From a virus (taxonomy: Duplodnaviria > Heunggongvirae > Uroviricota > Caudoviricetes): a DNA stretch of 36,622 nt. The DNA lies in the IMG/VR virus record IMGVR_UViG_2531839531_000013, positions 1 to 36,622 of that record. One strand, given 5' to 3'. Position 1 is the stretch's first letter. Each line of letters opens with the position of its first letter. The notes under the pieces were generated by a model. That model was given only the letters and a program-made list of their open reading frames with translations. It ran no database searches and was not told the origin of the DNA. A program made the position numbers and the translations under genes. Below, piece by piece: positions 40-35,380 of this stretch.

Positions 40-402
40 GGGGCTGATTCTGGATTCGACGGGATTTGCGAAACCCAAGGTGCATGCCGAGGGGCGGTTG
101 GCCTCGTAAAAAGCCGCAAAAAATAGTCGCAAACGACGAAAACTACGCTTTAGCAGCTTAATAACCTGCTTAGAGCCCTCTCTCCCTAGCCTCCGCTCTT
201 AGGACGGGGATCAAGAGAGGTCAAACCCAAAAGAGATCGCGTGGAAGCCCTGCCTGGGGTTGAAGCGTTAAAACTTAATCAGGCTAGTTTGTTAGTGGCG
301 TGTCCGTCCGCAGCTGGCAAGCGAATGTAAAGACTGACTAAGCATGTAGTACCGAGGATGTAGGAATTTCGGACGCGGGTTCAACTCCCGCCAGCTCCAC
401 CA
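40..402 (+). ncRNA. ssrA: tmRNA (SsrA), complete, about 363 nt, ending in CCA
   Basis: Begins GGGGCTGATTCTGGATTCGACGGG and ends GGTTCAACTCCCGCCAGCTCCACCA; matches my memory of the E. coli tmRNA sequence, including the tag-reading-frame region. Confidence 0.95.
358..402 (+). repeat. attL core: 45-bp ssrA 3' end, identical to the copy at 35131..35175
   Basis: Exact 45-bp direct repeat ATGTAGGAATTTCGGACGCGGGTTCAACTCCCGCCAGCTCCACCA seen at both positions. Confidence 0.9.
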
Positions 403-412
403 AATAAATCAA

Positions 413-441
413 GGGGTTACGTGAAAGCGTAGCCCTTTTTT
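413..441 (+). terminator. Intrinsic terminator directly after ssrA (element-donated)
   Basis: GGGTTACG / CGTAGCCC stem with 6-nt loop followed by a T6 run. Confidence 0.6.
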
Positions 442-510
442 CTTTAGTAGTGGCGGCAAAATGGCGGCAGACATTCAGTCAAGCCCAGTTGCTACTACAT
501 GCGATCGCAA

Positions 511-1284
511 TTACAACTTAAAGAGTTTCGCTTGCCCTGGATTAACAGCTTCGACGTAGTTTTTGACCCCTATTCTGTGCGGCTCATAATTGCTTGAATA
601 GAAATCAATCAGGAAGTCACTCATTTTCTGAGATGTGACTTTCATAACTCCCTTACTCAAAGTTAAATTAAACACGCTAATCTTTGACGATGGTGCCTGA
701 GTTTTACTCATGTTGGCTTGATAACCAGATTTACGCATTGCCACTAGTGCTTCGTCGTAAGCCGCTTGTAATTGGGCCAAATCGTTTGACGAGATGATCA
801 CATCATCCATAAACACACTTAGCTTGAGATCATGATGTTTGTTCAATCGGCGTAGTAAGCTACCAAAATAACTTTTATCTAAGCAGAGGGTTGCAAGTAT
901 TGGAGATTGAACAAAACCAAAAGGGAGGACATGCTTATGTGGACTATGGGACAAGTTTCTTACAGTTGAAAATGTTGAGATTTCCCGCGCTTGAGAATAG
1001 GTGAAGTAGCTCTTTAGATCACGGGTGATACGACTACGGCTCGTTGACTGAAAAAATTGTTTAATATCAACAACGGCAAAAAAATCACTTTTTAAGTGTA
1101 ATCTGGCAGCTTTAAGATGCCCACCAGTTCTTAGATGGTAAAAATAGAGTGGCGGAATCCACTTGTTTCTGACATCCTGAAGTATCTTCCCTCCGACTTT
1201 ACGTGCCTCAACGCTTGGGACATAAACCCAAACCCCGGGCTTAATCTCAAATTTATCTTCCCACCTTTGAACTTCTATTGTCAT
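511..1284 (-). CDS. Compact reverse transcriptase (257 aa), retron-like; family not assignable by eye
   Basis: RT motifs in canonical order: VPSVEARKVGGKI (motif 1-like), FFAVVDIKQFF (motif 2), LPFGFVQSPILATL (motif 4), VFMDDVII (Y/FxDD catalytic motif), NMSKT (motif 6). AT-rich relative to the phage backbone. Confidence 0.8.
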   Translation of the reverse strand: MTIEVQRWEDKFEIKPGVWVYVPSVEARKVGGKILQDVRNKWIPPLYFYHLRTGGHLKAARLHLKSDFFAVVDIKQFFQSTSRSRITRDLKSYFTYSQAREISTFSTVRNLSHSPHKHVLPFGFVQSPILATLCLDKSYFGSLLRRLNKHHDLKLSVFMDDVIISSNDLAQLQAAYDEALVAMRKSGYQANMSKTQAPSSKISVFNLTLSKGVMKVTSQKMSDFLIDFYSSNYEPHRIGVKNYVEAVNPGQAKLFKL

Positions 1285-1426
1285 GAGTTAAATTGTTGTA
1301 GTTGAAGGCCATGTTAAGAACGGCGTAAACCGCACCAACTAAGCCAACAAACGCGGTTGCGCATTTGAGCATAGCGGTGATCAGTTCAACACGCGCCTTA
1401 ACTAAGCCAAGTTCGTTTGTATCCAT
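1253..1426 (-). CDS. Small single-pass membrane protein (57 aa), overlapping the RT start
   Basis: GGAGGA Shine-Dalgarno 7 nt before the second ATG (MDTNELG...); hydrophobic segment LKCATAFVGLVGAVYAVLNMAF; stop overlaps RT start by 32 nt. Alternative start at 1441. Confidence 0.5.
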   Translation of the reverse strand: MDTNELGLVKARVELITAMLKCATAFVGLVGAVYAVLNMAFNYNNLTHDNRSSKVGR

Positions 1427-1572
1427 AACTTGTTCCTCCATAGATACCTGACGTCTCTTAGCGCAAGCGCATGGCCCTAACTAAATAAAAAATAACAACC
1501 AGTTAGCCCAGAAAGCTTAACAAGTCGGCGTCCGATTACATGGCAATCAGGTAATCGGTCCGCAGTCGCAAA

Positions 1573-1684
1573 GCGACAAACTACATATCTACGGAGTGGG
1601 GATAAATCCCCGCTAACGTCAGGCATTGTTAATTTAACCTCAACTTATAGAAAAGTATAGTTTTAAATCATGTAGTTATGTCGC
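1573..1684 (-). ncRNA. Candidate structured RNA bounded by a 14/15-bp long-range inverted repeat, between the ogr stop and the RT operon
   Basis: GCGACAAACTACAT (1573..1586) pairs with ATGTAGTTATGTCGC (1670..1684), enclosing GGGGATAAATCCCC and GTCGCAAAGCGAC hairpins. Strand and transcription are inferred only. Confidence 0.3.
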
Positions 1685-1687
1685 CAT

Positions 1688-1906
1688 TTAAATCGGCAAA
1701 CCCACCTGTTTAAATTTATGAGGATGCGGCTGAACCGGATTTGACTCTTTTGGCGTTGCAATCGAACGAACAAAAGTTTCATGGGTAACAAAAGTATGGC
1801 TGCAGTTAATGTTCTGGCACTGGTTGTAACGCTCTTTGGTCAATGAAGATACCTGAAAACTGCTGCGAGTATGGGCGGCACTTCCACACAGTGGGCAAAT
1901 CATCAT
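1688..1906 (-). CDS. ogr: Late gene transcription activator, Ogr (P2) / B (186) family zinc finger
   Basis: CPLCGSAAH...KERYNQCQNINCSHTF matches the Cys-x2-Cys...Cys-x4-Cys Ogr pattern; about 72 aa from MMICPLCG. ORF track extends the start to 1939. Confidence 0.85.
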   Translation of the reverse strand: MMICPLCGSAAHTRSSFQVSSLTKERYNQCQNINCSHTFVTHETFVRSIATPKESNPVQPHPHKFKQVGLPI

Positions 1907-1996
1907 TTTTCGAGTTCTCCCCATTTTTGCTAAATTCACAATAATGATATCGCATTATTCCATTTTTCAAACTTAAAAGTTCTCCATTGTGAAGAA

Positions 1997-3097
1997 TCAT
2001 TCCATTTCGAGATCATCAACCTTCACTTCAAGCTCAAGACTGGTCGTAAAACCATTATCCGGGCTGACGGTATGTGTCAGAGTCGTAATGGTCCATTCCG
2101 CATCATCTATCGGCTGTTTAAAGCCACTGACTTTCACTGGCATTTCCGTGTAGAGATCTGCCCGCCCTTCCGCCAGTTGTAGCGAGAATGACGCAACGCC
2201 GCGTTGCAGGCGTTCCCACTGCATTTTCGCTGCCCGTTCAGCGTTGCTCCGGTTGGCATAAGTGCGATTAAGTACCAGCACGTTTTCATCCGTACCCACC
2301 AGGTAATCGCCCTGCTTCGCTTCCAGCTCTTTCTTCTGCTTCTTAGTCCTGCGCTTACGCTTCACCGTGGTGCTTTCTTTCTTCGCGGGTTCGCGGGTAT
2401 GCAACCAGCTGGCAATTATGCCCGTATAGGCTCCGCGATCTGCCAGGGTAAAGCGGTGACTGTCGCCGTCCTTACGTGTGATAGTGATCACCGGCAGTGG
2501 TTTACCGCTGGCACTTTTGCCCTGTCCCTGCCGGATGAATAACAGATTGCCATTTTTCACCGACGCAATAGCACCGTACTGGCGCGCCAGCCGCATCAGA
2601 AAACTACCGTCACTCTCATTAGTCTGGTCTATATGCTCCACGAGCTTATCCGACAGGTCTTTACCCAGTACCATCTTCAGCTTGTGCCGCGCGGCTATCT
2701 CCTTCACCACTTCCCCAATGGTGGTCTTGTGCCACGATTTTTCACGGCGGGTATTCAGCGTTTCCCGAAAATCAGCACTTCGCGCCCGGATAGTCAGGCG
2801 GTCCGGTGCGCCAGTGTGTTCAATCTCGTCCACCGTGAATGCCCCTTTCGGGAAAAGCGGCTGCCCCTTCCAGCCCAGCGCCAGCGTAATGACCGCACCA
2901 CGGCGCGGCAGCACGATTTTCCCGTCGGCATCGTCCAGCTCCAGATCAAGCTGGTCTGCTTCAAAGCCCCGATTGTCCGTCAGAGTCAGACTCATCAGGC
3001 GGTTATCCAGCACAGTGGTGATATCCCTGCCCTCAATACTGATGCTGAATGCCGGAGTTTTGTTGCTTTTGTTAAGCAGTTCAGAGCTGAAATTCAC
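1997..3097 (-). CDS. D: Tail protein D (late control D)
   Basis: 366 aa; position next to ogr and resemblance to P2 gpD as recalled. Confidence 0.85.
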   Translation of the reverse strand: MNFSSELLNKSNKTPAFSISIEGRDITTVLDNRLMSLTLTDNRGFEADQLDLELDDADGKIVLPRRGAVITLALGWKGQPLFPKGAFTVDEIEHTGAPDRLTIRARSADFRETLNTRREKSWHKTTIGEVVKEIAARHKLKMVLGKDLSDKLVEHIDQTNESDGSFLMRLARQYGAIASVKNGNLLFIRQGQGKSASGKPLPVITITRKDGDSHRFTLADRGAYTGIIASWLHTREPAKKESTTVKRKRRTKKQKKELEAKQGDYLVGTDENVLVLNRTYANRSNAERAAKMQWERLQRGVASFSLQLAEGRADLYTEMPVKVSGFKQPIDDAEWTITTLTHTVSPDNGFTTSLELEVKVDDLEME

Positions 3098-3579
3098 GAC
3101 AGCAGCCCTCCCACCGTTTTACTGATATCGCTTAAGGTAGACGTTGCCGTTTCCTGCAGATTATTCAGTTGCGCACTGAGATCACCGAACATATCGGACA
3201 GGGATTCATCCACCCGTTTGAGCGACAGGGTGAACTCAATCCGGCGCGGCATACCGTCGCGGAAAAACTCCGTTTTAGTCTGATTCAGTCCCTCAATCAC
3301 ATACATGCCATAAATCGTGCCGCTGCCTTCAATCAGGGGCCATGCTTTCCCCTGTTCTGCCATCTGCTCCAGTGCCAGCAACGACAGCCTGCCACCTGTT
3401 ATCTCCGGCATAAGAACACCGGAAAGCGTCAGCATGTCGTTGTCCGGTCCCAGAAACTGCGTGGACGGACGTCGGTTTACCCGGCTGTTTGCCGCATGTC
3501 GCCAGCTGCGTTGATACTGCAGCTCCTGATACGGCACGGTGCGCAGCATAAACACGTACAATCCCAGCACCATCATCAT
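3094..3579 (-). CDS. U: Tail protein U
   Basis: 161 aa between D and tape measure; overlapping stop/start coupling; P2 synteny. Confidence 0.8.
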   Translation of the reverse strand: MMMVLGLYVFMLRTVPYQELQYQRSWRHAANSRVNRRPSTQFLGPDNDMLTLSGVLMPEITGGRLSLLALEQMAEQGKAWPLIEGSGTIYGMYVIEGLNQTKTEFFRDGMPRRIEFTLSLKRVDESLSDMFGDLSAQLNNLQETATSTLSDISKTVGGLLS

Positions 3580-6500
3580 GCGTCGTATCCCCCCTGATCG
3601 CTGTAGTTACTCCTGGCTTTTGCCTTCAGCCTGCGTTCACGTTCATCAAGCTGGCGGGCCACCTCCCGCGCAATATCCTGCGCACTTTGTCCTGGCTGCG
3701 TCTGAATGATGATCTGCATCGGTGCCTCAATCCGTTGAACGGGCGGCACAGTGGCTGCACGACTCACCATCGCTTCGCCGCCTTTCGCGGGAAGTGCCAA
3801 AGGGTGCAACGGTGGAAGCTCTGCAGGCGCGGCAGCAACGCCCATCATTCCGGCAACAACGGCAGCCAGTGCAGCTGTATTTCTCCGGCTGGTCACATTT
3901 GCCGGGCCGTTAACAATTTCCGGCCCGTTTTCACCGACGATGCCAAACTGCCCGCGCGGGATATAGCCGCCGCTGTCATACATCCCCGCAAAGCCATATC
4001 CCCATGACGGAAAACCACCCGATGGCATCATCACTTTACCGTCTGCATTCACCGTCGCAGGTTGCTGACGCGTCACGCTTTCCGGCAGTTTCGCCTTTGC
4101 AGCCTCTTTACTGACAATGCCGAGTTTATCCAGCAACCAGGAAACGCCAGATTTCAGGGAGTCCAGCGGATGCATAACCATATTCAGCCCTTCCGCCAGT
4201 GCCTCCCCGAATCGTCGCCCCATTGCCGCTGCGCTCTGCAGTTCGGCAGAAGTCGACTTAACGGGCGTCAGCAGATCAGTAAACCAGCCCCACAGCGCCT
4301 GCACTTTGTCACCAATCCACTGGAACACAGGCTTAAGCGGTTCGAACGCTGCACTGATGGGACCTGCCGCCGCTTTGAATCCTTCCACCACGCCACCGAG
4401 AAATGCGGTGATGGGTTGCCAGTATTTCCAGACAACCAGTGCCACACCCGCCAGTGCAGTAACCACAAGACCTATCGGACTGAGCAGAGCACCTAACAGA
4501 CCAGATACGGTATACAGGGCAACGCGCAACATCGCCAGTGGACCAGATGCCAGTACTCGCAGCACCGTGCCTGCGGCAGCCAGCCCGCCGCGTAGTGCTG
4601 CCAGTGGATTCATAAACATCACAGCAACCGCACGTAAACCGGATAATCCAGACCGCAAAAGTGCAACCGGCGCACCTGCTACAGTTTTCAGGACATTTCC
4701 CGTCAGTGATGCCGTGCGGCGCAAAGACGACAACGGCGCAGTAAGTAAACCTGCGGCGTTGCCCGATGAAGCAAGCCCGCGTCGCAGCAGTGCCAGTGGT
4801 GCGCCAGCCAACCAGGACAACGCGCTGCTGGTTCGAGTTACTGCTGCCGTAACGGAAGATAACGTTTTGATACCCAACACAGAGAATCCCAGACGGATCA
4901 CTGCCAGCGGCCCCAGCACTGCAGCCAGCGCCACCGCTAAGGTGCCGAGGCCGACGGTAACCGCAGCCACAACAGCCGATGCTTTCATCAGTGTGCCTGT
5001 CAGTTCCGGGTTAGCTTCCACCCAGCGACGCAACGCCCCCGTGACGCTTTTCACCGTGTACAGAATATCCATCAGCGGCTGGCGCAGCGTTTCGCCCAGG
5101 CTGCTGAAGGTGTTCTGCGCTCCGGTTTTGACCAGCAACCACTGCGCAGAAAGTGAATCCTTGTTAATGTCGGATTCTTTCTGCATGGAGCCAAGCGCAT
5201 CATTGCCCGCTGTCAGTTTTAACTGACGCTGCAGTTCCGGCAGGTTGTTTGCCAGTTTCGCCGCGTCATCGCCAAACTCTTTACCAAACAACATAGTCAT
5301 GGCAGACAGGCGCTTGTCCTGCGGCAGCGCGTTTACCTTCTCCAGCACGCGCTGGATGGTTCCCATCGCATCCTTCGTCATCTGCTTTTCAATCACTTCA
5401 GGATTGAGTTTCAGCAGATTCATCCCTTCAAAGAAACTCTTGCTTTGCATGGTGGCAATGGACAATTCACGCACCATCGCGTTTGCTGCACTGGCTGCAA
5501 CCTCTGGCGCAGCGCCCAGTGTCAGGAAGGTGGAACCCAGCGCCGCCGCTTTACGATAATCCAGACGGTCAGCCACACCGCCCAGACGTTGCATCACATC
5601 AATGATGTCTGCCCCTTTCGACATGGCGTTATCATCCAGATAGTTCAGCGCATCACCGAGCTGTTCAATATTGCGGGTGGGGATTTTGTAGAGCTGGGCG
5701 ATTTTCCCCAGACTTTCTGACAGTTCATCCGCTGGCAGCTCAAAGGCTGTTGCCGCCTTTGCTGCCGTACTGGCGAAGGCCAGCAGGTCACGTTTCTGAT
5801 CTTCCCAGCTGTCGTCAGGGTTTGCGACGTTCATGCGCGCACCACCTTCAACCAGTGCAGCGAAGTCCACCGCACCGTTTTCCATCGGCAACTGTTCGCT
5901 GGCAGCCTTGATGGCATCCTGCATTTCATAAAAACGTGCAGTGCGGTTGCCATTATCGTCACGCAGACCATTGACCTGCTTTGCCACACCTTTCATGGCA
6001 TCTTCCATGCTGGTATAGCTTTTTACTGCCGCCATCACTGGCGCACCCATTGCCAGCCCTGCAGCCGTGGTGGTGGCTCCGGCACCTGCAATACGATCAC
6101 GCACCTCCAGCGAACGGGCATAACTGGCACGCGCTGCATTCATCCTGCGCTGAGCTTCCCCCAGTCGCTTCAGCCGCGCCTCCTGTTTCGAAAGTTCCTG
6201 GTTATAACGTGATGTTTCACGGGCTAAACGGGCAGTTGCTCCCGCATCGTCTTTCGCAGAAATTCCCGCCCGGTACAGTTCAGCACGCACAAGCGCCGTC
6301 TGCTGCTGCAGCTTTTTCTGGCGTTCTTCCAGGCGCTGAACAGCCAGCCGTTGACGGCCCAGAGCAACAACCTGACGTTGCGAAGGCGGCCCCATCGCTC
6401 CCAGTTCCTGACTGAGCAAATTTGCACGCTGGCGGGCATAGTTCAGCCTGTCGCCTAATTTCTGATTTTCTGCCTGCAGCTTTCGGAAGCTGTCCAGACT

Positions 6501-6653
6501 GCTCCCGGCCTGATCAAGCTGCTTTATTGCATCGCGGGATTTTTTGACAGCAGCAGCCAGTTCTCTTGAACTGGCCTGCGCAGATCGAAATGGGCGGGTG
6601 AGCTTGTCAACCGCATTAAGAATGACCTGCAGACGCAGGTTGTTATCACTCAT
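3576..6653 (-). CDS. T: Tail tape measure protein
   Basis: 1025 aa, coiled-coil N-terminal half and Ala/Gly/Leu-rich membrane-like repeats; P2 gpT position. Confidence 0.9.
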   Translation of the reverse strand: MSDNNLRLQVILNAVDKLTRPFRSAQASSRELAAAVKKSRDAIKQLDQAGSSLDSFRKLQAENQKLGDRLNYARQRANLLSQELGAMGPPSQRQVVALGRQRLAVQRLEERQKKLQQQTALVRAELYRAGISAKDDAGATARLARETSRYNQELSKQEARLKRLGEAQRRMNAARASYARSLEVRDRIAGAGATTTAAGLAMGAPVMAAVKSYTSMEDAMKGVAKQVNGLRDDNGNRTARFYEMQDAIKAASEQLPMENGAVDFAALVEGGARMNVANPDDSWEDQKRDLLAFASTAAKAATAFELPADELSESLGKIAQLYKIPTRNIEQLGDALNYLDDNAMSKGADIIDVMQRLGGVADRLDYRKAAALGSTFLTLGAAPEVAASAANAMVRELSIATMQSKSFFEGMNLLKLNPEVIEKQMTKDAMGTIQRVLEKVNALPQDKRLSAMTMLFGKEFGDDAAKLANNLPELQRQLKLTAGNDALGSMQKESDINKDSLSAQWLLVKTGAQNTFSSLGETLRQPLMDILYTVKSVTGALRRWVEANPELTGTLMKASAVVAAVTVGLGTLAVALAAVLGPLAVIRLGFSVLGIKTLSSVTAAVTRTSSALSWLAGAPLALLRRGLASSGNAAGLLTAPLSSLRRTASLTGNVLKTVAGAPVALLRSGLSGLRAVAVMFMNPLAALRGGLAAAGTVLRVLASGPLAMLRVALYTVSGLLGALLSPIGLVVTALAGVALVVWKYWQPITAFLGGVVEGFKAAAGPISAAFEPLKPVFQWIGDKVQALWGWFTDLLTPVKSTSAELQSAAAMGRRFGEALAEGLNMVMHPLDSLKSGVSWLLDKLGIVSKEAAKAKLPESVTRQQPATVNADGKVMMPSGGFPSWGYGFAGMYDSGGYIPRGQFGIVGENGPEIVNGPANVTSRRNTAALAAVVAGMMGVAAAPAELPPLHPLALPAKGGEAMVSRAATVPPVQRIEAPMQIIIQTQPGQSAQDIAREVARQLDERERRLKAKARSNYSDQGGYDA

Positions 6654-7082: not shown

Positions 7083-7136
7083 TTTGCTGTCCTGTCAATT
7101 GGGTTCTGGCGCGGTATCCCGCGCCGTTCAGATATA

Positions 7137-7652: not shown

Positions 7653-7661
7653 GTTGTCCCC

Positions 7662-8834: not shown

Positions 8835-8910
8835 AGTGGCGAACCTCCTGATTGGATTAGGCTTCGCCCTATGTTGAAGTGATTGTGCCTGACAAACAGC
8901 TAAGCGCAGT

Positions 8911-8928
8911 TGTGTCGTTATTCACACA
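8911..8928 (-). promoter_or_regulatory. Candidate Ogr-dependent late promoter element (TGT-N12-ACA) upstream of FI
   Basis: TGTGTCGTTATTCACACA, centred about 85 nt upstream of the FI start codon. Confidence 0.5.
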
Positions 8929-8976
8929 AAATAACGGTATTTGTCTGCTTGCAGGGATAATCAACATAATGCTGAT

Positions 8977-9549
8977 TCAGGGGGATTCATTGATCTTATT
9001 TGCCGGAAATTTTCTATAAATGGTAGAAACGCCTACATCAAAAATCAGTGCAATACGCTGTCTTGATTCTCCGGCCTCGAGTAAACGCCCAATCTGTGCC
9101 CACTGTTCGGTGGTCAACTTAGGACGGCGTCCACCTACTCTGCCTTTGGCACGAGCTGCAGCCAGCCCTGCCCTGGTACGTTCAACTATCAGTTCGCGTT
9201 CCATTTCAGCCAGGGCACCCATGACATGAAAAAAGAAACGGCCCATTGGGGTACTGGTATCAATACTGTCAGTCAGGCTTCTGAAATTCACACCACGCTG
9301 GCGCAACTCTTCTATCAGCGTAACAAGATGCCGCATACTGCGCCCCAACCTGTCCAGCTTCCAGACAACCAGCGTGTCTCCTGCCGATAGTGTCCTGAGT
9401 AGTTTTTTCAGCCCCGGTCTGTCGGACTTAGTGCCACTGATTTTGTCCTCAAAAATCTGCTCACATCCCGCGCAGTTCAGTGCATTACGTTGCAAATCGG
9501 TGTTCTGGTCATTTGTTGACACGCGTACATAGCCAATAAGCATGATCAT
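8977..9549 (-). CDS. Serine recombinase, DNA invertase (Cin/Gin/Hin family)
   Basis: MLIGYVRVSTNDQNTDLQRNAL... closely resembles Cin/Gin as recalled, with C-terminal HTH. Start at 9549 or 9543. Confidence 0.9.
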   Translation of the reverse strand: MIMLIGYVRVSTNDQNTDLQRNALNCAGCEQIFEDKISGTKSDRPGLKKLLRTLSAGDTLVVWKLDRLGRSMRHLVTLIEELRQRGVNFRSLTDSIDTSTPMGRFFFHVMGALAEMERELIVERTRAGLAAARAKGRVGGRRPKLTTEQWAQIGRLLEAGESRQRIALIFDVGVSTIYRKFPANKINESP

Positions 9550-9570
9550 CCCCCTGAATAAAAACCGGAG

Positions 9571-9954
9571 ATGATGCCAGTTAGCTGTTACCTCTGCATT
9601 TTCTTAAACGTTGGTTTGGGAGAAGCCAGATATGTCATTCAGCGAGGAGCTAATGCCAATGGTGCGTGGATACGCTGGTCAGATGGTGCAATAGAAGTCT
9701 TTGGAACGGGGGGTTCTAATGATAATGGACTGGCTAAAGTCGTTTATCCAATTGCGCTACCTAAGCTTTCACGTTTTATCAGCATAGCGGAAAGAATAGG
9801 AACGGATTATGGGGGCACATCTAATAATGTTCACGTTTCAATGATCGTGGATGACCAGGTCACTAATACCGGTTTTTATGTCCGCTGCCAGATGTACGAC
9901 GGAACACCATCAACAAGTGCTTTTTCCTGGAGGGTTTATTGTGCGCCTGTTTAA
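9571..9954 (+). CDS. Alternative tail-fibre C-terminal segment, promoterless in this orientation
   Basis: ORF reads through the crossover site (encodes FLNVGLGEA, parallel to TYLGLGEG in H) and continues 110 codons to a stop. Confidence 0.45.
   Translation: MMPVSCYLCIFLNVGLGEARYVIQRGANANGAWIRWSDGAIEVFGTGGSNDNGLAKVVYPIALPKLSRFISIAERIGTDYGGTSNNVHVSMIVDDQVTNTGFYVRCQMYDGTPSTSAFSWRVYCAPV
9599..9624. repeat. Invertase crossover site (hix/gix/cix-like), distal copy
   Basis: Its reverse complement TTCTCCCAAACCAACGTTTAAGAAAA shares a 14-nt arm with the site at 11210..11235 in inverted orientation. Confidence 0.6.
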
Positions 9955-10138
9955 TCCTGTTACTTTGACTGAAGTAATCCCCGGTCTTCATGACGTGACC
10001 GGGGCTGTTGAATTACCAGAAGATAACTGGTTTTTTACTGCATCTGAAATCCCTGAAGGAATGGAAATATCTGTTAACGAGAAGGGAGAACCCATTCTGA
10101 TTGAGATTAAACCGTCTCAGGAGGAACTGGCCAGATGA
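9941..10138 (+). CDS. Short alternative tail-fibre assembly chaperone fragment
   Basis: Starts at GTG overlapping the upstream stop (VRLFNPVTLTEV...); only about 66 aa. Weak call. Confidence 0.3.
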   Translation: MRLFNPVTLTEVIPGLHDVTGAVELPEDNWFFTASEIPEGMEISVNEKGEPILIEIKPSQEELAR

Positions 10139-10712
10139 CATCTGGCGCGGTGCTGGTATCTGTTGCCATCACCGCGTCAGTGTAATCCAGCACGGCGTTA
10201 AGTCGGGTGTTTTCTGCCTGCGTCAGCTTCCGCCCGGCCTGCAATTTCAGTTGAATCAGACTAATGGAAACCATTGCAGCATCAATCAGCGACTGCCGCT
10301 GTGTTTCTGCCATGTCTACTGCTGCTCTATGCTGTGCCTCGGTATCCGTCACCCATTTCTCACCATCCCATTTATCGTATGGCGTTAACGGGGCGATAGT
10401 GGTTGTCTTTTCAGGGTAATCACCCGGAGCTGTGATTTCTTTTGATTCTCCTGTTTCGGTGCTATAGACGATTTCACCGCGATGGTCTGGCACATATTCC
10501 CATGAGTTAAAATCTGCAGAACGGCAAATTGCATAACCAGCTTTATATGAGCCAGGAGCATCTAAACAGGAACATGCCGGGATACCGACACCCACAGCAA
10601 GATATTCGGTTGATGTGGAAATATATTCTCGTGTTTCACCATCATAATTATAAACAGTAATATCTCCCGCCTTTGTGGCGATGAGTTCCTTATTTAATAT
10701 AGCTTTATCCAT
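10107..10712 (-). CDS. G: Tail fibre assembly chaperone (gpG / Tfa family)
   Basis: 201 aa immediately downstream of H with ATGA overlap; Tfa-like C-terminal region. Confidence 0.8.
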   Translation of the reverse strand: MDKAILNKELIATKAGDITVYNYDGETREYISTSTEYLAVGVGIPACSCLDAPGSYKAGYAICRSADFNSWEYVPDHRGEIVYSTETGESKEITAPGDYPEKTTTIAPLTPYDKWDGEKWVTDTEAQHRAAVDMAETQRQSLIDAAMVSISLIQLKLQAGRKLTQAENTRLNAVLDYTDAVMATDTSTAPDVIWPVPPETV

Positions 10713-14695: not shown

Positions 14696-14741
14696 AGGGA
14701 AAGGTTGCCATCAGGGGAAGAAAGGCGACAGTGCTGCAACT

Positions 14742-14759: not shown

Positions 14760-14763
14760 AAGA

Positions 14764-16532: not shown

Positions 16533-16533
16533 T

Positions 16534-17242: not shown

Positions 17243-17245
17243 AAT

Positions 17246-18659: not shown

Positions 18660-18662
18660 GAA

Positions 18663-28374: not shown

Positions 28375-29228
28375 GCACGTACTCCGTACACGGCAGAACT
28401 GTCCACGCCACGCGAATAATCAAATCCCACCCAGCAGCGCGGCCCGGAAACAGCAATGATTTCTGTTGCTGATTTACCCTCGCCAGCTGCCACACCGATG
28501 CTGCGTTTTGCTTTGATGTAGTGGTGGGTGAAATTGCGATACAACGAACGGATCAGGGATGTGTCACTGTTAGAAACAATGACCGGATGTCCTTCTGATA
28601 ACCGATGTTCAAGAACGGATGCCAGGTGATACTGGTCATCTTCAGTGAAACCATCAGTGTGATAGCCGGAAAACGTACCGTCATACGGCGGATCGCAATA
28701 CACCACATCCCCCGCCTTCAACATCGCCAGCGTTTCATCAAAGCTGGCGCAGATAAACGTTGCTCGCTGGGCTTTTTCTGCAAATGCGCGAATTTCTTTT
28801 TCAGGGAAATACGGATTTTTATAATTACCGTAGGGAATGTTGAAATGCCCGCTCTTGTTATAGCGACATAAACCACGGTAACCGTGACGATTGAGATACA
28901 GGAAATATACCGCTTTCATGAAATCAGTAATTTCAGTTGAGTAATTAAACTCCTGCCTTATGTTGTAATAAGCCACCTCCCTGTTTGCTTCCTCAAATAA
29001 AGCTCTGGCGCGAGATATAAACGATTCACAATCAGCAGCAACCTTTTTATAGAGGTTGATTAAATCAGGATTAATATCCGCAACAAGATAGCTGGGGTAC
29101 TCCGTCTCCATCATCACAGCACAGGAACCCGCGAAAGGTTCAACCAGTCGCGGGCCAGCAGGAAGATGCTTTTTCAGTTCGGACATAATGGCGGTTTTAT
29201 TTCCCGCCCATTTCAGGATGGTGCTCAT
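28371..29228 (-). CDS. DNA N6-adenine methyltransferase (Dam-like)
   Basis: N-terminal KWAGNK...EPFAGS and catalytic DPPY motifs; start taken at [15 protein letters not shown]-coupled to the upstream gene. ORF track extends to 29288. Confidence 0.85.
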
Positions 29229-29452
29229 ACAGCACCTCCGTTGTAATGTTTGCCTTTCAGCTCTGCGATTTCCTGACAGGTAATGCAAAGCTGCACACCC
29301 GGAATGGCGCGGCGGCGTGCTGGCGGAATTGGCGCTTCACACTCAATGCAAAGCACGCGGGACACGCCCGGCGTTTTGGCACGGGCAGAACGGATATGGC
29401 GCTGGCGTTCTTCTTCAACGCGCTGCTGTACGAGATCCATTGCATCAGCCAT
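29225..29452 (-). CDS. TraR/DksA-type C4 zinc-finger protein
   Basis: CIECEAPIP...CITCQ four-cysteine arrangement; 75 aa. Confidence 0.7.
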   Translation of the reverse strand: MADAMDLVQQRVEEERQRHIRSARAKTPGVSRVLCIECEAPIPPARRRAIPGVQLCITCQEIAELKGKHYNGGAV

Positions 29453-29691
29453 TAGTGGATCTCCTGCGCTTCGTTCTGGATTGCTTCAGCTGCCACACGC
29501 AGCAGTTCAGCCGCTTCAACGTGGTTTAGCTGGCGGGATGTGATATGGCACGCAAGGCTATCAAGGCGAGCTGCCATTGCTTCAGCTCTTGCCCGGCGTT
29601 CTTCCAGACGAGCCTCTGTCAGTAAAATATTAAGCCCTGCATCATCCGGTCCGGTTTTAGTCGTGAGGGTTTCAATATTACGCATAATCAA
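29452..29691 (-). CDS. Hypothetical early protein (79 aa)
   Basis: ORF in operon context only. Confidence 0.5.
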   Translation of the reverse strand: MIMRNIETLTTKTGPDDAGLNILLTEARLEERRARAEAMAARLDSLACHITSRQLNHVEAAELLRVAAEAIQNEAQEIH

Positions 29692-29752
29692 TTCTCCTGA
29701 ATTTAGCTAAAGGGATACCCGGCGGGTTTACGCCATGAATTTCATTAGTTGG

Positions 29753-30094
29753 TTAATTCGGCATGGTTAGCCGTCTGGGAAATAAGCTCACCACTGCACG
29801 AAAATGATTCATTGCTTTAATCAGCTCCCGCTTTTCGTCAGTGGTCAGCTCATTAATGCTGATGCTATGACGTTCAGCTGGAATTTTTGCCATAAAGAAT
29901 ATAGCAGCCAGTGCCCGTTTATTTTGTTCATTATTGATATCCCGTGGATCACGCATATCTTTAATAAACCGCTCCAGCTCTGACTCAATATTCAGGCCAA
30001 AAACTTTCGCCCTTAACTCCGCAATATGATTAAGTCCATTCAGGCGTTCACCGGGTCTTAATGGAACAGTCGCCGCAGCGCCTTCAATAGCCAT
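29753..30094 (-). CDS. Hypothetical early protein (113 aa)
   Basis: ORF with GGGGGA Shine-Dalgarno; operon context. Confidence 0.5.
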   Translation of the reverse strand: MAIEGAAATVPLRPGERLNGLNHIAELRAKVFGLNIESELERFIKDMRDPRDINNEQNKRALAAIFFMAKIPAERHSISINELTTDEKRELIKAMNHFRAVVSLFPRRLTMPN

Positions 30095-30258
30095 TGGTTC
30101 CCCCGTTTTTTCGTTGATAGTTCTGCCAGCAATTCATCTTGCGAACGGCACGGATGCCAGCGTTTACCATCCTCACCCATGATCCAGCCGTGACCGTAGT
30201 GCATTGCCGGACTTTGTTTTACCAGCAGCGATGCAAATGATGGTTCTTTCGTCAGCAT
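30058..30258 (-). CDS. Hypothetical early protein (about 66 aa) directly after cII
   Basis: Start taken at MLTKEPS, 8 nt after the cII stop; overlaps the next ORF by 37 nt. Confidence 0.45.
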   Translation of the reverse strand: MLTKEPSFASLLVKQSPAMHYGHGWIMGEDGKRWHPCRSQDELLAELSTKKRGNQWLLKALRRLFH

Positions 30259-30265
30259 AAGCACC

Positions 30266-30775
30266 TCACAGCAAACCGAATGAAGCACCGAGGCCAGTCA
30301 CGGTATCAACTGCACTCGCCATCGCAGGATTAGCCTGTAAACGGGCCTGCAATGAAACAGCAGCCAGCGCCATCAGTCGTGTAACAGAGTTAATGCTGCT
30401 GATCGCATCACGACGGCCTACACTGGTTTTTACATCGCCAGAAACCGCACCTGCCGCGACACGCCCTATCTCTGCAGTTGCACTCATGACGTAATGCGGC
30501 AGTTTCTCTTTTGCCACCTCATTAATCGGTACACATGGCAGGCAGTGAATCTGTGCCAGAAAACCGTCTACCAGCGTTGAATCTTCCGTCAGATCGGTAA
30601 GTAGCCAGATATCTGGCGCATTGAGCTGATGCGGTTGATCTGGGTTGAGTTTGTTTCGCAGAGTCTGGACATTCATTCCTGCACGTTCTGCCAGCTTCGC
30701 CATATTGTGACGAAGTGCAAAAGCTCTACAGGCTTCATCAAAATGCGGGTGTTTGGAAATCTTATAATCAAACAT
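30266..30775 (-). CDS. cII: CII-like lysogeny-establishment regulator (186 type)
   Basis: 169 aa; long near-identical stretches to 186 CII as recalled (NMAKLAE.AGMNVQTLRNKLNP, WLLTDLTEDSTLVDGFLAQIHCLPCVP). Confidence 0.85.
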   Translation of the reverse strand: MFDYKISKHPHFDEACRAFALRHNMAKLAERAGMNVQTLRNKLNPDQPHQLNAPDIWLLTDLTEDSTLVDGFLAQIHCLPCVPINEVAKEKLPHYVMSATAEIGRVAAGAVSGDVKTSVGRRDAISSINSVTRLMALAAVSLQARLQANPAMASAVDTVTGLGASFGLL

Positions 30776-30807
30776 GCTACCCCCTTAGAAAGTTCTCATA
30801 ATTGAAC

Positions 30808-31050
30808 TTACTTACCAACAATGACGCGGAAGTTGGAATGTCCGAGGGATTCACGGACCTGATCAGTTTTGTACATCAGATAACGCAGACTTACGCGGCC
30901 TTTGTTTTTTTCTTTCTTGACCATGTACTTAGCAAGTTGACCATGGTGAATTTTTTGGTAAACAGAGCCGCGGGAAATGCCCTCCCACTCTGCGAACTCT
31001 GCAGGTGTTGCCATCTCTTTTGGTACACGAATTGAAATATCAGTACTCAT
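30808..31050 (-). CDS. apl: Apl/Cox-like excisionase and repressor of the lysogenic promoter
   Basis: 80 aa, first gene of the leftward lytic operon, divergent from cI. Confidence 0.7.
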   Translation of the reverse strand: MSTDISIRVPKEMATPAEFAEWEGISRGSVYQKIHHGQLAKYMVKKEKNKGRVSLRYLMYKTDQVRESLGHSNFRVIVGK

Positions 31051-31096
31051 AGTGCAGTATCTCTTACTTTGTGTGCGTGTTAGTTCGTTTTAGCCC

Positions 31097-31152
31097 GTCT
31101 CTTAAACTCTCACATCAAGAGACAAGAAAACATTACGATCTTGATTCAAGAT
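31097..31152. promoter_or_regulatory. Candidate operator dyads in the cI/apl switch region
   Basis: GTCTCTT-N13-AAGAGAC (31097..31123) and ATCTTGA-T-TCAAGAT (31138..31152). Confidence 0.4.
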
Positions 31153-31171
31153 TGTCAAATGGAGATTACCA

Positions 31172-31804
31172 ATGTTAAACATCAGAATGGGTTCCGATAC
31201 GGGAGGTAAAGCAGCTATTGAGAGGCTGCTTGCGGCTTATGGATTCACAACTAAGCAGGCATTAAGTGAGCACCTGAATGTCTCAAAAAGCACTATGGCA
31301 AACAGAGTGTTACGTGACAGCTTTCCTGCTGACTGGATAATTCAGTGCGCACTAGAAACCGGTGTTTCGTTGCTTTGGTTAGCTACAGGACAGGGAAGCA
31401 TGAAAGCAGGATCTGAGACTGAAAAAAGATCTCATAATGAGAACAAACAAGCAATTAAACCGTTATCTAAACTCATAACTCCATCTATTCCTAAAGGAAC
31501 CTTGGAGAATGGACAACTCAGTATTGATGAAGAGATTTTCCTAGACCACAGCATATTACCTGCAAATTATGAAGAATCGATGTTCTTAGAAACCCCTACT
31601 GATTGTTATCTCATCGATAAATCAGTTAAACAAGTCAGCAATGGATTCTGGCTTATCAATATTGATGGAATGATTATTATTGCAAAAATTATGCGGATTC
31701 CCGGCAATAAGATTGTAGTAAATCAAGATGAAGCGTCTTTCGAGTGCTCTGCTGATGATGTGGAAGTTATTGGGCGTGCAGTCAAAGTAATAAAGAGTAT
31801 CTAA
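31172..31804 (+). CDS. cI: CI-like immunity repressor (186 type)
   Basis: 210 aa, cotranscribed with int; N-terminal HTH region resembles 186 CI as recalled. Confidence 0.75.
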   Translation: MLNIRMGSDTGGKAAIERLLAAYGFTTKQALSEHLNVSKSTMANRVLRDSFPADWIIQCALETGVSLLWLATGQGSMKAGSETEKRSHNENKQAIKPLSKLITPSIPKGTLENGQLSIDEEIFLDHSILPANYEESMFLETPTDCYLIDKSVKQVSNGFWLINIDGMIIIAKIMRIPGNKIVVNQDEASFECSADDVEVIGRAVKVIKSI

Positions 31805-31806
31805 AC

Positions 31807-32823
31807 ATGACTGTCAGAAAACAGCCAAACGGCAAATGGTTGTGTGAGTGCTATCCCAATGGACGCAATGGCAAGCGCGTGCGTAAGCAATTTGCTACGA
31901 AAGGAGAAGCCATTGCTTTTGAAAGCTTCACAATGGAAGAAGTGAATAAAAAACCGTGGCTAGGTGAAAAGGATGATCGGCGACGCCTATCAGAATTAAT
32001 TGAGCTTTGGTATTCCCTGTATGGCCAGACACTCGCAGACCCCAAGCGCCTCATGGCGAAACTTAGAATTATCTGTAATGGTCTAGGCGACCCCATCGCC
32101 TCAGAACTGACAGCCGGTGACTTTACAAAATACCGCGAAGCACGGTTAAAAGGCGACGTTCGTAACGAAGACGGCACACTAATGTCGCCAGTAAAACCAC
32201 GCACGGTGAATCTTGAGCAACGTAACCTATCATCGGTTTTCGGCACATTGAAAAAACTAGGCCACTGGTCAGCACCAAATCCTCTCGCCGGGCTGCCAAC
32301 ATTTAAAATCGCTGAGGGGGAACTGGCGTTCCTGACCTCGGAAGAAATTAAACGTCTGCTAGATGCCTGCGCTGATTCTCAAAACCCCAGTCTGCTTTTG
32401 ATTGCAAAAATATGCCTGGCCACCGGCGCACGCTGGAGTGAAGCCGAAAACCTGCAGGGCCATCAGTTATCTAAATACCGCATCACTTATACCAAGACGA
32501 AGGGCAAGAAAAACCGCACCGTGCCGATATCTCAAGATCTGTATGACGAACTCCCCAAGAACAGAGGGAAGCTATTCACCCCGTGCAGAAAAGCCTTTGA
32601 ACGGGCAGTAAAGCGAGCTGGCATCGAGCTGCCAGAGGGCCAATGCACTCACGTGCTACGTCATACATTCGCCAGTCATTTTATGATGAATGGCGGAAAC
32701 ATACTGGTCCTACGCGATATTCTGGGCCATGCCGATATAAAAATGACGATGATTTACGCCCACTTTTCGCCGGATCATCTTGAAGATGCAGTTACTAAAA
32801 ACCCTTTATGCAACTTAAGATAG
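31807..32823 (+). CDS. int: Tyrosine integrase, P2 Int family
   Basis: 338 aa; matches recalled P2 Int over TGARWSEA, HxLRHxFA and ILGH...M.YAHF catalytic regions. Confidence 0.9.
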   Translation: MTVRKQPNGKWLCECYPNGRNGKRVRKQFATKGEAIAFESFTMEEVNKKPWLGEKDDRRRLSELIELWYSLYGQTLADPKRLMAKLRIICNGLGDPIASELTAGDFTKYREARLKGDVRNEDGTLMSPVKPRTVNLEQRNLSSVFGTLKKLGHWSAPNPLAGLPTFKIAEGELAFLTSEEIKRLLDACADSQNPSLLLIAKICLATGARWSEAENLQGHQLSKYRITYTKTKGKKNRTVPISQDLYDELPKNRGKLFTPCRKAFERAVKRAGIELPEGQCTHVLRHTFASHFMMNGGNILVLRDILGHADIKMTMIYAHFSPDHLEDAVTKNPLCNLR

Positions 32824-33138
32824 AGTAACTTATGAAAATAAACTCAAATTATTTACAAATATAATATTCAGCAGGTTATCCATTCTTATTTAACTCTTCA
32901 GACTGAGATTAGATTTTATTTATAGAATAAGATAATTTCATATCACAAAAAACCTGTAAGCCCTCATCTTTGTTGTATAAAAACATAAAAGATGCCATAT
33001 TTAAAAAAGTAGAAAAGCATTGCAATGCAACATTAAAAATAAACCAATAAAAACCAGTCATTAGAAAATGAAAAAAAACAAAAACATTTTTTATCAAAGC
33101 TTCAGTCTGACTACTAGTTTGACTCTGCAATTAACTAT

Positions 33139-33168
33139 CAAGATGATCAATATTTATTGATCATCTTG
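33139..33168. repeat. Perfect 14-bp inverted repeat with 2-bp spacer
   Basis: CAAGATGATCAATA-TT-TATTGATCATCTTG, 34 bp downstream of the deaminase gene stop. Confidence 0.6.
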
Positions 33169-33201
33169 AAGTTGCCCTCAGGAAAGATGAGTATAATATT
33201 T

Positions 33202-34938
33202 CTACTCAAGAAGATATTCTAACTCATCTTTTATCGGGATAACTTGCTCATAAAGTCGGTGATATGACTTCCCAATTGCGCCTCTGAATTGTATTAACTT
33301 TGGTGGCTTGTTACCTATATTAATAATATGGTCTTGAGCTATACCTGGGTAGGGATCAATAAATACAATTTCAGATATACCTAACTGATAAGCTTTTTTC
33401 GCACACAGCTCACAGGGACTGGCAGTTGTATATAACCTCCCCCCCTGAACGCCAATGCCACCATATTTTGCAAGTTGTAAAAATGCGTTTTCCTCAGCAT
33501 GTAATGCACGTGTATGAACTTGATTACCTTTTTTATCTTTATCAAGATCATTATGTATATCTTTAAAACAATAAGATAAGTTCCTGCCTCTATAAATATC
33601 ACCAGTTTTATCTATCGCCCTAAAATTTAATAGTTTCTCATTAGCTTTAATTCTGAAAGAACTATTATTTCTCTCATAATGACTGTACACTTTTTCATCA
33701 AAGTCGTTCATTAGGCCATCTAGCGATCTCATAGAGCAAGGAATCTGACCGTTGGCGACATCATTCCAACCCACTGATTTTATTGAATTTTCACCATCAG
33801 TTACTACAGCTCCCACCTGTCTAGATATACAACCAGAGTTTAATTTTACCGTATACGCAACTTGCATAACCCTTTCCATTGCAGTAGGTGTTATCAGACC
33901 AGGATGCTTCATCAGTGCGATGTACCACGCTAATTGTGCTTTTAAAATATTGTCATTATCAAATTCATTTTTTGGGTTAAAAATGTGTATATCTGATAGT
34001 TCAATGCATTTAGTTACATTTGGATTAGTGAGATGTTTGTAAGAGTTATCACCTTTACCTGACTCTACAGAATCTATTTCCTCTATCTGCTTTTCAGAAA
34101 ACTTATGTAGTTTCCGCAAATAGTTTGTTCGATGTTCATCTGGGGCATTTATTGACATTAAATGAAATGCAGAATATCTATCCTTAAAAAATTTTGCTTC
34201 ATATGGATTTCTAATAGCATCTATGACAATTAATGCGTTATCTCTTTTGCTTTTTCTTATTAATTTAATAACCCTATTAATAGTTTCCGGCAAATGAAAA
34301 ACAGATTTAGGTATAAACTCTTTATCTTCAAAATCGACTTCAATACGCCCACGGCGTCTAATTGACTTACCTGCTAACTGATAGACTGAAACATATAAAT
34401 TTGAGTTTATCGCATTTAGTTCAGCTTTGAATTCCTTAGTAAATTTTCTAACTAACCTCAAAATTGATATAAATTTATTAATCGTTTTTTCATTAAGCTT
34501 CAATTCACTATTATGATCAAGCAAATTCTCAATTACATTTTTAAATCTTGTTAAAATGAGATTATCTGAAAATACACCAAAAGTTAATACATTATCTAAA
34601 TGCTCTTTACTGATAGATTTATTAGATGATAGAATAAACTCAGAAGCTTCTTCAACTGTTAACATCAAAAGATACGCTGAGATTAGGTCACTCACCTTAA
34701 TTGAGTAAAAATTTTCCCAGTGATTTTCTGCGAATTTTTTAACTATATTATAACGATGGACATCCAATCCCTTGTAAAAACCCTGTAATTTACTTACATC
34801 AGGGAAGACTGTTTTTTCGTTTTCAAGAATATTAGCTGTTGTTGTGCAACCAGAACCAGTTCGACCTGTCAAACCGACTAAAATAAACTGCCCATTTTCA
34901 AGGAAAAGCTCACTAACGAATTTTTTTTCTTTCATCAC
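33202..34938 (-). CDS. P-loop NTPase/kinase-like domain fused to a cytidine/dCMP deaminase domain (AvcD/DCD-like)
   Basis: N-terminal glycine-rich loop VGLTGRTGSGCTT; C-terminal zinc-deaminase signature HAEENA ... SPCELCAKK; 578 aa; very AT-rich. Confidence 0.75.
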   Translation of the reverse strand: MMKEKKFVSELFLENGQFILVGLTGRTGSGCTTTANILENEKTVFPDVSKLQGFYKGLDVHRYNIVKKFAENHWENFYSIKVSDLISAYLLMLTVEEASEFILSSNKSISKEHLDNVLTFGVFSDNLILTRFKNVIENLLDHNSELKLNEKTINKFISILRLVRKFTKEFKAELNAINSNLYVSVYQLAGKSIRRRGRIEVDFEDKEFIPKSVFHLPETINRVIKLIRKSKRDNALIVIDAIRNPYEAKFFKDRYSAFHLMSINAPDEHRTNYLRKLHKFSEKQIEEIDSVESGKGDNSYKHLTNPNVTKCIELSDIHIFNPKNEFDNDNILKAQLAWYIALMKHPGLITPTAMERVMQVAYTVKLNSGCISRQVGAVVTDGENSIKSVGWNDVANGQIPCSMRSLDGLMNDFDEKVYSHYERNNSSFRIKANEKLLNFRAIDKTGDIYRGRNLSYCFKDIHNDLDKDKKGNQVHTRALHAEENAFLQLAKYGGIGVQGGRLYTTASPCELCAKKAYQLGISEIVFIDPYPGIAQDHIINIGNKPPKLIQFRGAIGKSYHRLYEQVIPIKDELEYLLE

Positions 34939-35130
34939 GTCCCACTTATGAATGTAAGAATATTCAACATATTAATTATAATTTATTAACTCATTTTGTT
35001 CTAGATACTTGATGTAATGGCGGCACTTTGGCGACGGAGCATTAAAAACGCGTAAGACGAGCAAATACAACAAAACACTAACACATTGTTTTTAAATATA
35101 AATAGCTGTTTTTACTATACTAAAAATGGT

Positions 35131-35175
35131 ATGTAGGAATTTCGGACGCGGGTTCAACTCCCGCCAGCTCCACCA
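35131..35175 (+). repeat. attR core: displaced original ssrA 3' end
   Basis: Identical to 358..402 and followed by the native ssrA terminator. Confidence 0.9.
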
Positions 35176-35221
35176 AAATTCTCCATCGGTGATTACCAGA
35201 GTCATCCGATGAAGTCCTAAG

Positions 35222-35254
35222 AGCCCGCACGGCGCAAGCCCTGCGGGCTTTTTT
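35222..35254 (+). terminator. Native ssrA intrinsic terminator
   Basis: GC-rich hairpin AGCCCGCACGGCGCAAGCCCTGCGGGCT followed by T6. Confidence 0.7.
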
Positions 35255-35309
35255 GTGCCCTCAATTTGTCCCGCGAAGTCCGAAGAAAACTAATTAAATC
35301 CGATCCTTT

Positions 35310-35361
35310 TAGGCACCTTGTTAGGCACCTCATAAAGCTTTATTGTTTTTTGAGGTGCCTA
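35310..35361. repeat. Three copies of TAGGCACCT (two direct, one inverted) upstream of intA
   Basis: 35310..35318, 35322..35330 and inverted at 35353..35361. Confidence 0.5.
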
Positions 35362-35380
35362 AAACTATGGAAACCCGGCA

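Follow-up and report, generated by a model that had tools for sequence, protein, structure and literature searches.

Accessory genes outside the attachment-site arms of a Fels-2-like prophage in a tandem array at ssrA

In phage P2 the known accessory loci are old/tin and Z/fun. Here we describe a relative that carries genes elsewhere. The stretch of DNA analysed (36,622 nucleotides (nt), IMG/VR record IMGVR_UViG_2531839531_000013; hereafter the window) very probably holds a Fels-2-like temperate phage of the P2 family inserted in the 3' end of ssrA, the transfer-messenger RNA (tmRNA) gene, with cargo genes riding just outside the compact arms of its attachment site (attP) and with an IntA-type island behind it in tandem. 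Several parts of this arrangement have precedents. Fels-2 and SopEPhi integrate at ssrA (PMC3448106), and tandem islands at ssrA have been documented (PMC3146451). For P2-like phages, Rousset et al. (2022) described a hotspot between gpA and the portal gene, and the relevant passages of that paper do not mention the att flanks. A defence hotspot between int and att in P2-like prophages was published in Nucleic Acids Research (NAR) in 2026 (PMC13586616). In the relevant sections of that paper its authors call the int-att position atypical, propose that the genes are mobilised with the phage, and treat the slot as a minor one that accounts for 3% of recognised systems; the same sections contain no description of arm boundaries or of a slot between att and ogr. 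Cartapus, a prophage of strain LF82 that is related to the phage described here, produces virions at a low level, and the gene in its att-ogr slot is transcribed 15-fold above the prophage background (PMC9928086).

The ends of the prophage are marked by a 47-nt sequence that is present in two copies (for coordinates of all features see Table 1), and this pair is the sole long exact direct repeat in the window. When up to 18 mismatches were allowed, no further copy of the 47-nt core was found anywhere in the window, and none of its 20-mers recurred there with fewer than 4 mismatches, the one 4-mismatch match lying near position 29522. In the Fels-2 record attP is annotated as 24 + 23 nt across the record ends, and these two segments when joined give the 47-mer of the window. 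Such sequence comparisons support the 47-nt repeats as the ends of the prophage. An earlier reading of this DNA (the first-pass annotation) had proposed that exact repeats of the ssrA 3' end bracket the prophage, and this stands; the repeat length that it gave, 45 bp, is 2 nt short because, beyond the final 45 nt of ssrA, the repeat includes AA. Between the cores lies a complete set of P2-type structural and replication genes in P2 order, as judged from the map of open reading frames (ORFs) and from megablast comparison with Peduoviridae records. When the first 25 kb were compared with records of P2-like prophages from Klebsiella and E. coli, 80-90% of this segment aligned at ~96% nt identity. 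The second half is ~94% identical to phage RE-2010 of Salmonella and to Cartapus, a prophage of E. coli, both members of the Fels-2 group of the Peduoviridae. From the stop codon of int to the right core we measured 2307 nt, and from the stop codon of ogr to the left core 1283 nt, in agreement with the 2.3 and 1.3 kb estimated previously. The two cargo modules, one with a deaminase gene and one with a reverse transcriptase (RT) gene, do flank the core as had been described, the deaminase on the int side and the RT on the ogr side.

Alignment of the DNA around the core with Cartapus, RE-2010 and Fels-2 located the points at which the cargo begins. The P' arm is conserved in all three phages as far as position 470 and the sequences are unrelated past it, and on the other side P-arm homology begins at ~35014-35017 and extends to 35177. 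Homology around the core is limited to these two segments (~35014-35177 and 358-470) and ends sharply at the start of the cargo. Because it stops at the arm edges, the working attP appears to be a compact block of ~230 bp that is composed of a P arm of ~117 nt, the 47-nt core, and a P' arm of ~66 nt. A motif scan identified pairs of the octamer TGGCGRCR with 11-nt spacing at both outer edges of the block. Judging from their position and conservation, and by analogy with the annotated attP of P2, these pairs are putative arm-type sites for Int. A terminator scan placed a strong hairpin followed by a T-run in the P' arm and the native terminator of ssrA behind the right core. In Fels-2 the equivalent region is free of cargo: the sequence ATGGCGGCA-TTT-TGGCGGCA comes 3 nt past the int stop, the core begins ~117 nt after that stop, the end of ogr lies ~115 nt beyond the core, and no genes stand between ogr or int and the core. 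The proposal that cargo has displaced the attachment core from int was thus borne out, with the conserved arms having stayed at the core and the cargo lying outside them.

This arrangement bears on how the cargo was acquired. Aberrant excision of the type that yields lambda gal and bio phages could have picked up DNA from the host or from a neighbouring island, and it would fit with cargo that adjoins att at a site crowded with mobile elements bearing defence genes. However, such an event would put foreign DNA directly against the core in place of one arm, whereas both arms are intact here and contiguous with the core; furthermore, the cargo was unmatched in the ssrA-flanking DNA of the genomes inspected. 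We consider acquisition by this route very unlikely.

The positions on either side of attP are variable among relatives. On the int side we surveyed 27 IMG/VR loci, with Int 92-96% identical to that of the window (3 of the 27 held no int match), and the interval between the int stop and the core fell into a small number of classes. Seven loci had a distance of 133 nt and no cargo, which is the Fels-2 state. The distance was 787 nt in one locus that encodes a 216-amino acid (aa) membrane-like protein, ~1160 nt in five loci with proteins of 305-352 aa, ~1340 nt in nine loci with the 401-aa family that is annotated as RES in Cartapus, and 1671 nt in two loci with a 513-aa protein; the window with its deaminase constitutes a sixth class. 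The slot DNA of the 787-, ~1160-, and 1671-nt classes has a G+C content of 32-35%. No Pfam or PADLOC matches were obtained for the int-side slot proteins tested, including the 401-aa protein of Cartapus. On the ogr side, 74 loci with an exact P' arm motif were examined. The distance from the arm to ogr was ~70 nt in about ten loci without cargo, 486 nt in six, ~600 nt in about 47 that carry the 160-aa 'exonuclease' of Cartapus, 938 nt in three, 1115 nt in one, and 1222 nt in three that carry the RT module. In the Fels-2 lineage most sampled loci therefore carry cargo, mostly genes without a match in the defence libraries. At least eight distinct single genes of low G+C content and without Pfam or PADLOC match were seen in the att-flanking slots of relatives (loci L108-L133, L149, L150, and L189), the int-side products having 216, ~305-352, 401, and 513 aa and those from the ogr side 71, 160, 237, and 288 aa. 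N-terminal hydrophobic segments are present in several of these proteins.

The int-side cargo gene of the window encodes a predicted anti-phage dCTP deaminase. Its product scored 423.7 bits against NCBIfam model NF041025, for which the equivalog cut-off is 400, and it contains an N-terminal P-loop (GLTGRTGSGCTT) as well as the C-terminal zinc motifs of cytidine deaminases, HAEENA and PCELC (HAE and PCxxC). An identical gene in RefSeq bears the same annotation. Just downstream of the gene is a perfect palindrome of 15+15 nt (33138-33169). The G+C content of the int-side slot is 28-35%, compared to 50-60% in the phage backbone, and the deaminase slot sequence was present in 20 of 5426 complete E. 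coli genomes.

A look-up by exact Int protein sequence returned ten genomic contexts, and in all ten the deaminase gene follows int at the same distance. The phage-side junction, at which ...AAAAATGGT meets ATGTAGG..., is identical in every one of them. What lies to the right of the core varies, at least six different sequences being present among the ten. The right-hand neighbours include an IntA-like integrase of 409 aa, an integrase that belongs to a complete P4-like satellite (strain 2020N21-246), a truncated integrase with an insertion sequence (IS) element, a remnant of ypjA without any integrase (CV839-06), and a P'-like arm of another ssrA-targeting element. The junction of deaminase and IntA that is present in the window was matched in TUM1887 only, where the integrase is interrupted. 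Because the same int-deaminase unit sits beside at least six different right-hand neighbours, the cargo moves with the phage, which supports its assignment to the phage.

The cargo could also be explained as remnants of one or more older ssrA islands trapped between nested att sites, in which case the true phage ends would lie beside int and ogr as they do in P2. Tandem and degraded elements are indeed common at the ssrA site, several genomes have degenerate ssrA ends on the right-hand side of the phage, and the G+C content of the cargo is foreign. The first-pass annotation had named excision junctions at a different core nearer to int as the observation that would place the cargo in a separate older island; a core of that kind was sought in the window sequence and none was found, with no full or partial core copy within 405-35130. 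The attP arms, moreover, lie between the cargo and the core rather than between int and the cargo, the deaminase stays with int as the right-hand context changes, and relatives hold other genes in both slots within the same 47-nt boundaries. An origin from trapped older islands is extremely improbable in light of these points, and cargo carried by the phage itself is the reading that we adopt.

From knowledge of the family, the tyrosine integrase of such a phage would recombine within the 47-nt segment of identity. The phage copy would rebuild the 3' end of the tmRNA, and upon integration the P' arm would bring a new terminator, the phage-supplied hairpin taking the place of the native one. 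Int would act in trans on attP while both cassettes, which are of low G+C content, travel inside the phage genome, and because of this action in trans the extra distance between int and attP should not affect recombination. In the circular form the two cassettes would make up one co-oriented island around attP, which integration would split onto both prophage ends, where such genes could be expressed in the lysogen.

This scheme presupposes a circular phage form, and the layout of the cargo would be irrelevant to such a form if the element were a fixed, defective prophage. Few virions are obtained from the related prophage Cartapus, for which an indicator host has not been found either, in keeping with a defect of this kind. 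On the other hand, all of the expected P2-type genes in the window are full-length and the repeats are exact, and the same phage, at ~96-100% identity, was seen next to different neighbours in many E. coli and Klebsiella backgrounds that are unrelated. Near-identical copies in such varied settings point to recent movement of the phage. We infer that the prophage is competent for excision at present, and regard a fixed defective element as unlikely, if clearly less so than the two alternative origins of the cargo discussed above.

Contigs in the attP form were identified for relatives. One IMG/VR contig (L113, 7.2 kb) is in this form with RES and Exo cargo. In this contig and in a 1.6-kb contig from a human gut metagenome (L207), the order is int or RES gene, P arm, core, P' arm, Exo, ogr, and gpD. 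These two contigs would fit circular or virion DNA from relatives, the alternative being a junction of tandem prophage copies. The IMG/VR pattern scan mostly gave attR junctions because the P' arm was specified by only 2 nt. A metagenome scan gave three loci, two of which are in the attP form, both lacking the deaminase and the RT; one of these two is probably a double-lysogen junction since it is located on a 96-kb contig.

A number of points weigh against cargo carried by a mobile phage just outside its attP arms. The octamer TGGCGRCR occurs 22 times in the window, and because of this count we only infer the role of the pairs as arm sites. The ten contexts constitute one closely related phage lineage because they were looked up by exact protein sequence, and they show movement of the int-deaminase unit rather than independent acquisitions of cargo. 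Neither the IMG/VR pattern scan nor the metagenome scan gave a contig in the attP form with the deaminase or the RT; those that were found carry the other cargo of relatives, and some of them could be tandem double-lysogen junctions. The Cartapus record is a permuted prophage, such that its attP was reconstructed and not sequenced from virions. Finally, the loci in the IMG/VR slot surveys were chosen by exact sequence patterns and were not dereplicated, and the proportions of the slot classes are rough for that reason.

Table 1. Coordinates of features in the 36,622-nt window.
Feature	Position	Strand	Evidence or remarks
ssrA (tmRNA), tag peptide ANDENYALAA	40-402	+	ARAGORN; Rfam RF00023, 295.8 bits
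attL core, 47 nt (3' 45 nt of ssrA + AA)	358-404	+	exact direct repeat with 35131-35177
P' arm of attP	405-470	+	hairpin 411-438; two TGGCGGCA repeats (451-458, 462-469), putative Int arm sites
Cargo slot, P' arm to ogr (RT module)	471-1687	-	contains ncRNA, small ORF, and RT
RT, 257 aa	511-1284	-	Pfam RVT_1 1.8e-21
Small ORF between ncRNA and RT, 57 aa	1253-1426	-	conserved peptide
Non-coding RNA (ncRNA) upstream of RT, ~180 nt	~1447-1623	-	conserved, covarying
ogr/delta-type late-gene activator	1688-1939	-	Pfam Ogr_Delta 6.7e-22
P2/Fels-2-type phage body	1997-31050	.	ORF list
Hin/Gin-type serine invertase, 190 aa	8977-9549		beside tail-fibre ORFs (whole region 8977-10712)
Variable slot, portal to gpA	23522-25251	-	G+C 39-42%
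Dam-type N6-adenine methyltransferase	28371-29288	-	adjoins gpA
CI repressor, 186/Fels-2 type	31172-31804	+	Pfam Phage_CI_repr, Phage_CI_C
Phage tyrosine integrase (int)	31807-32823	+	Pfam Int_N, Phage_integrase; 93% aa identity to Fels-2 Int
Cargo slot, int to P arm (dCTP deaminase and palindrome)	32824-35013	-	slot polymorphic in relatives
Predicted anti-phage dCTP deaminase, 578 aa	33202-34938	-	PADLOC dCTPase 2.9e-145; NCBIfam antiphage_deaminase
P arm of attP	35014-35130	+	two TGGCGRCR repeats (35018-35025, 35029-35036) at outer edge
attR core, second 47-nt copy	35131-35177	+	doubles as ssrA-derived left end of next island
ssrA-following sequence of phage-free genomes	35178-35380	+	terminator 35236-35250; 100% identical to GE3 ssrA-integrase interval
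IntA-type (P4/CP4-57 family) integrase, complete, 413 aa	35381-36622	+	Pfam Arm-DNA-bind_3, Phage_int_M, Phage_integrase

Of the second element, the integrase gene alone falls inside the window, 203 nt past the right core. The protein matches NCBIfam PRK09692 from end to end (931 bits) and shares 85% aa identity with IntA of CP4-57 in E. coli K-12, in line with the CP4-57 IntA type to which it had been assigned. Strain GE3 has an unoccupied ssrA followed by sequence that is 100% identical to 35131-36622, and the island behind the identical integrase in this strain is degraded, IS-rich, and ends near ypjA. A distal repeat that would close the second island was found neither in GE3, where core 20-mers were searched downstream with up to 2 mismatches, nor in 2020N21-246. 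The tandem array is real because the ssrA end occurs twice and two integrases, each from a different family, come after these copies, and with GE3 presenting the site without the phage, the view that two elements target the same tmRNA end was upheld. The array would have formed when the phage inserted at the ssrA end before a resident IntA-type island, or through earlier arrival of the island at the same site. Comparison of ssrA loci in related genomes, as suggested earlier, yielded the phage-free site of GE3 and the ten int-deaminase contexts.

Tandem arrays at ssrA are common. Among 27 attR junctions, the sequence following the core was of several recurring types that include other integrase-bearing elements. 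In several complete genomes the same IntA-type island stands behind other Fels-2-like prophages, and homology there starts at ~35011-35018, the edge of the P arm. Frequently a Fels-2-like prophage is followed by another ssrA-targeting element (L100, L115, L120, L122, L128, L129, L133, and L209), which has a similar terminator hairpin and different repeats (GTCCA-type); the second integrase in L209 is ~51% identical to the Fels-2 type. E. coli 2020N21-246 (L003, 30434-44503) contains a near-identical prophage with both cargo modules and, behind it at ssrA, a complete P4-like satellite with int, psu, an ogr/delta-like gene, an Icd-like gene, and a primase-helicase, as well as DUF262 and HEPN genes in its hotspot. 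A helper-type phage and a satellite are therefore found in tandem at one site in this strain. Tandem islands at tmRNA genes are reportedly the subject of 'Traffic at the tmRNA gene', a 2003 article by Williams.

The ogr-side cargo is the least expected item of the locus and the one most worth following up. The full RT slot was present in 28 of the 5426 complete E. coli genomes. The RT matches all retron-type models weakly, the highest score for the window protein being 62.7 bits; among 24 family members the lowest E-value was 1.9e-24. Against NCBIfam retron_St85 the RT scored 49.5 bits, for which the cut-off is 235. PADLOC and NCBIfam models did not assign it to a recognised retron clade or type. 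Identification as DRT2 or Abi-P2 was rejected, given that the PADLOC and NCBIfam models for these systems score no better than the weak retron matches. A predicted structure of high confidence (predicted local distance difference test, pLDDT, 94) was nearest to the retron RTs Ec86, Ec83, Eco8, and Eco7, with template modelling (TM) scores of 0.72-0.76. Retron RTs carry a VTG motif, and the RT of the window has F-N in place of T-G. Homologues of 250-260 aa are distributed over Gamma-, Beta-, Alpha-, and Zetaproteobacteria in a variety of settings, including a P4-like island, the tail-fibre end of a prophage, and a position adjoining umuDC in Klebsiella.

Upstream of the RT gene is a conserved ncRNA that gave no Rfam match at either gathering or permissive thresholds. 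Its ends pair, and the closing stem covaries across genera (CCUGACG/CGUCAGG, CCUGGCG/CGCCAGG, UCCGGCG/CGCCGGA, and UUUGGCG/CGCCAAA). Changes on both sides were observed at 7 of 10 pairs, and 93% of the alignment cells were paired compared to ~40% in slid controls, in an alignment that was fitted to the model and thereby favours the structure. With a covariance model built from enterobacterial copies, eleven distant loci were found to contain the element, its relative position being the same. Directly after the 5' arm of the ncRNA comes UUAG(C/G), a context that we take to resemble that of the branching G of retrons (Ec86). Every RT locus also has a small ORF, which encodes a peptide of 39-93 aa (mostly 40-65 aa) with a hydrophobic helix and a conserved C-terminal motif that ends in N-Y, usually F-N-Y. 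The ORF overlaps the start of the RT gene in another frame, and in Klebsiella pneumoniae (L011 and L013; 302 aa) and Kalamiella (L019) the peptide is fused in frame to the RT. The fused Klebsiella protein is very common, occurring in 7802 blocks of the collection.

We read the RT module as a probable retron-like system of three parts (ncRNA, peptide, and RT) that existing classifiers do not place, and no named retron type matching this RT was found in the literature. Like retrons, it has an upstream ncRNA with a covarying closing stem resembling a1/a2, an RT with a retron-like fold, and a further small gene. Unlike retrons, its RT is only ~255 aa long and scores far under every retron-type model, and its sole partner is a peptide of ~40-60 aa. 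Its activity may lie in defence. It is a tentative suggestion, which we would at present doubt slightly more than believe, that the module represents an undescribed retron-like defence system found across the Proteobacteria on mobile elements, and that the attP flanks of Fels-2-like phages are a rich and mostly unmined reservoir of anti-phage functions, each encoded by a single gene.

The phage body runs in the order gpD through tail, invertase, baseplate, lysis, head, terminase, portal, variable slot, gpA, Dam, cII, and a cox/apl-like gene. The slot between portal and gpA, the classical variable slot of P2, encodes a DUF4145 protein (232 aa, with a weak PD-T7-4 match of 1.2e-06) and an HNH-domain protein (239 aa); the DUF4145 gene is also found in Cartapus, where it lies beside the cos site. 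The invertase gene is located beside tail-fibre and tail-fibre-assembly ORFs in opposite orientations, which suggests an invertible host-range segment like that annotated in Cartapus. The Dam-type methyltransferase gene next to gpA is in the same place in relatives.

The first-pass description of the locus holds, and its estimate of novelty was too high because all components of the arrangement had been published before. The locus is a clear example of the int-att hotspot, nothing about it is categorically new, and the value of the finding as originally put forward is confirmatory. It does provide a case, resolved to the base, in which accessory genes between int and attP and between attP and ogr leave the attachment site undisturbed, and it gives sequence-level support to the 2026 proposal of a mobilised int-att hotspot, with extension to the other flank of attP. 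Three details are added, namely that the insertion points coincide with the arm boundaries, that a second slot exists between attP and ogr, and that in the Fels-2 lineage the slots usually hold genes that the libraries do not recognise. Such unrecognised genes may explain the low published percentage. The slots are easily delimited: the int stop and the first TGGCGRCR pair bound one of them, and the last pair and ogr bound the other. They are a cheap place to seek new anti-phage genes because in the small samples examined they mostly held unrecognised genes of low G+C content, the retron-like RT module being one candidate among these.

Among described phages, P2 has the same order of ogr, attP, int, and repressor gene. 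Its attP is compact too and has Int arm sites to either side of the core, a place taken in the window by the putative sites. P2 differs in its 27-nt core and host site, in the overlap of the int 3' end with the P' arm, and in the absence of cargo adjacent to attP. Fels-2 has in common with the window the 47-nt core, the P and P' arms with their TGGCGRCR pairs, a CI/cII switch of the 186 type, the gene order, and an Int that is 93% identical; its attP abuts int and ogr, whereas in the window 2.2 kb and 1.2 kb of cargo lie just outside the arms. RE-2010 and Cartapus have the same core and arms, a backbone of ~94-97% nt identity, and cargo in the same slots. Their int-side cargo is the 401-aa protein (RES in the Cartapus record), they have neither the deaminase nor the RT, and the ogr-side gene of Cartapus is the 160-aa 'exonuclease'. 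The second element is like CP4-57 in having an IntA-type integrase after an ssrA 3' repeat, although its integrase is only 85% identical to that of K-12. Compared to the int-att hotspot described in 2026, both flanks of attP are occupied here.

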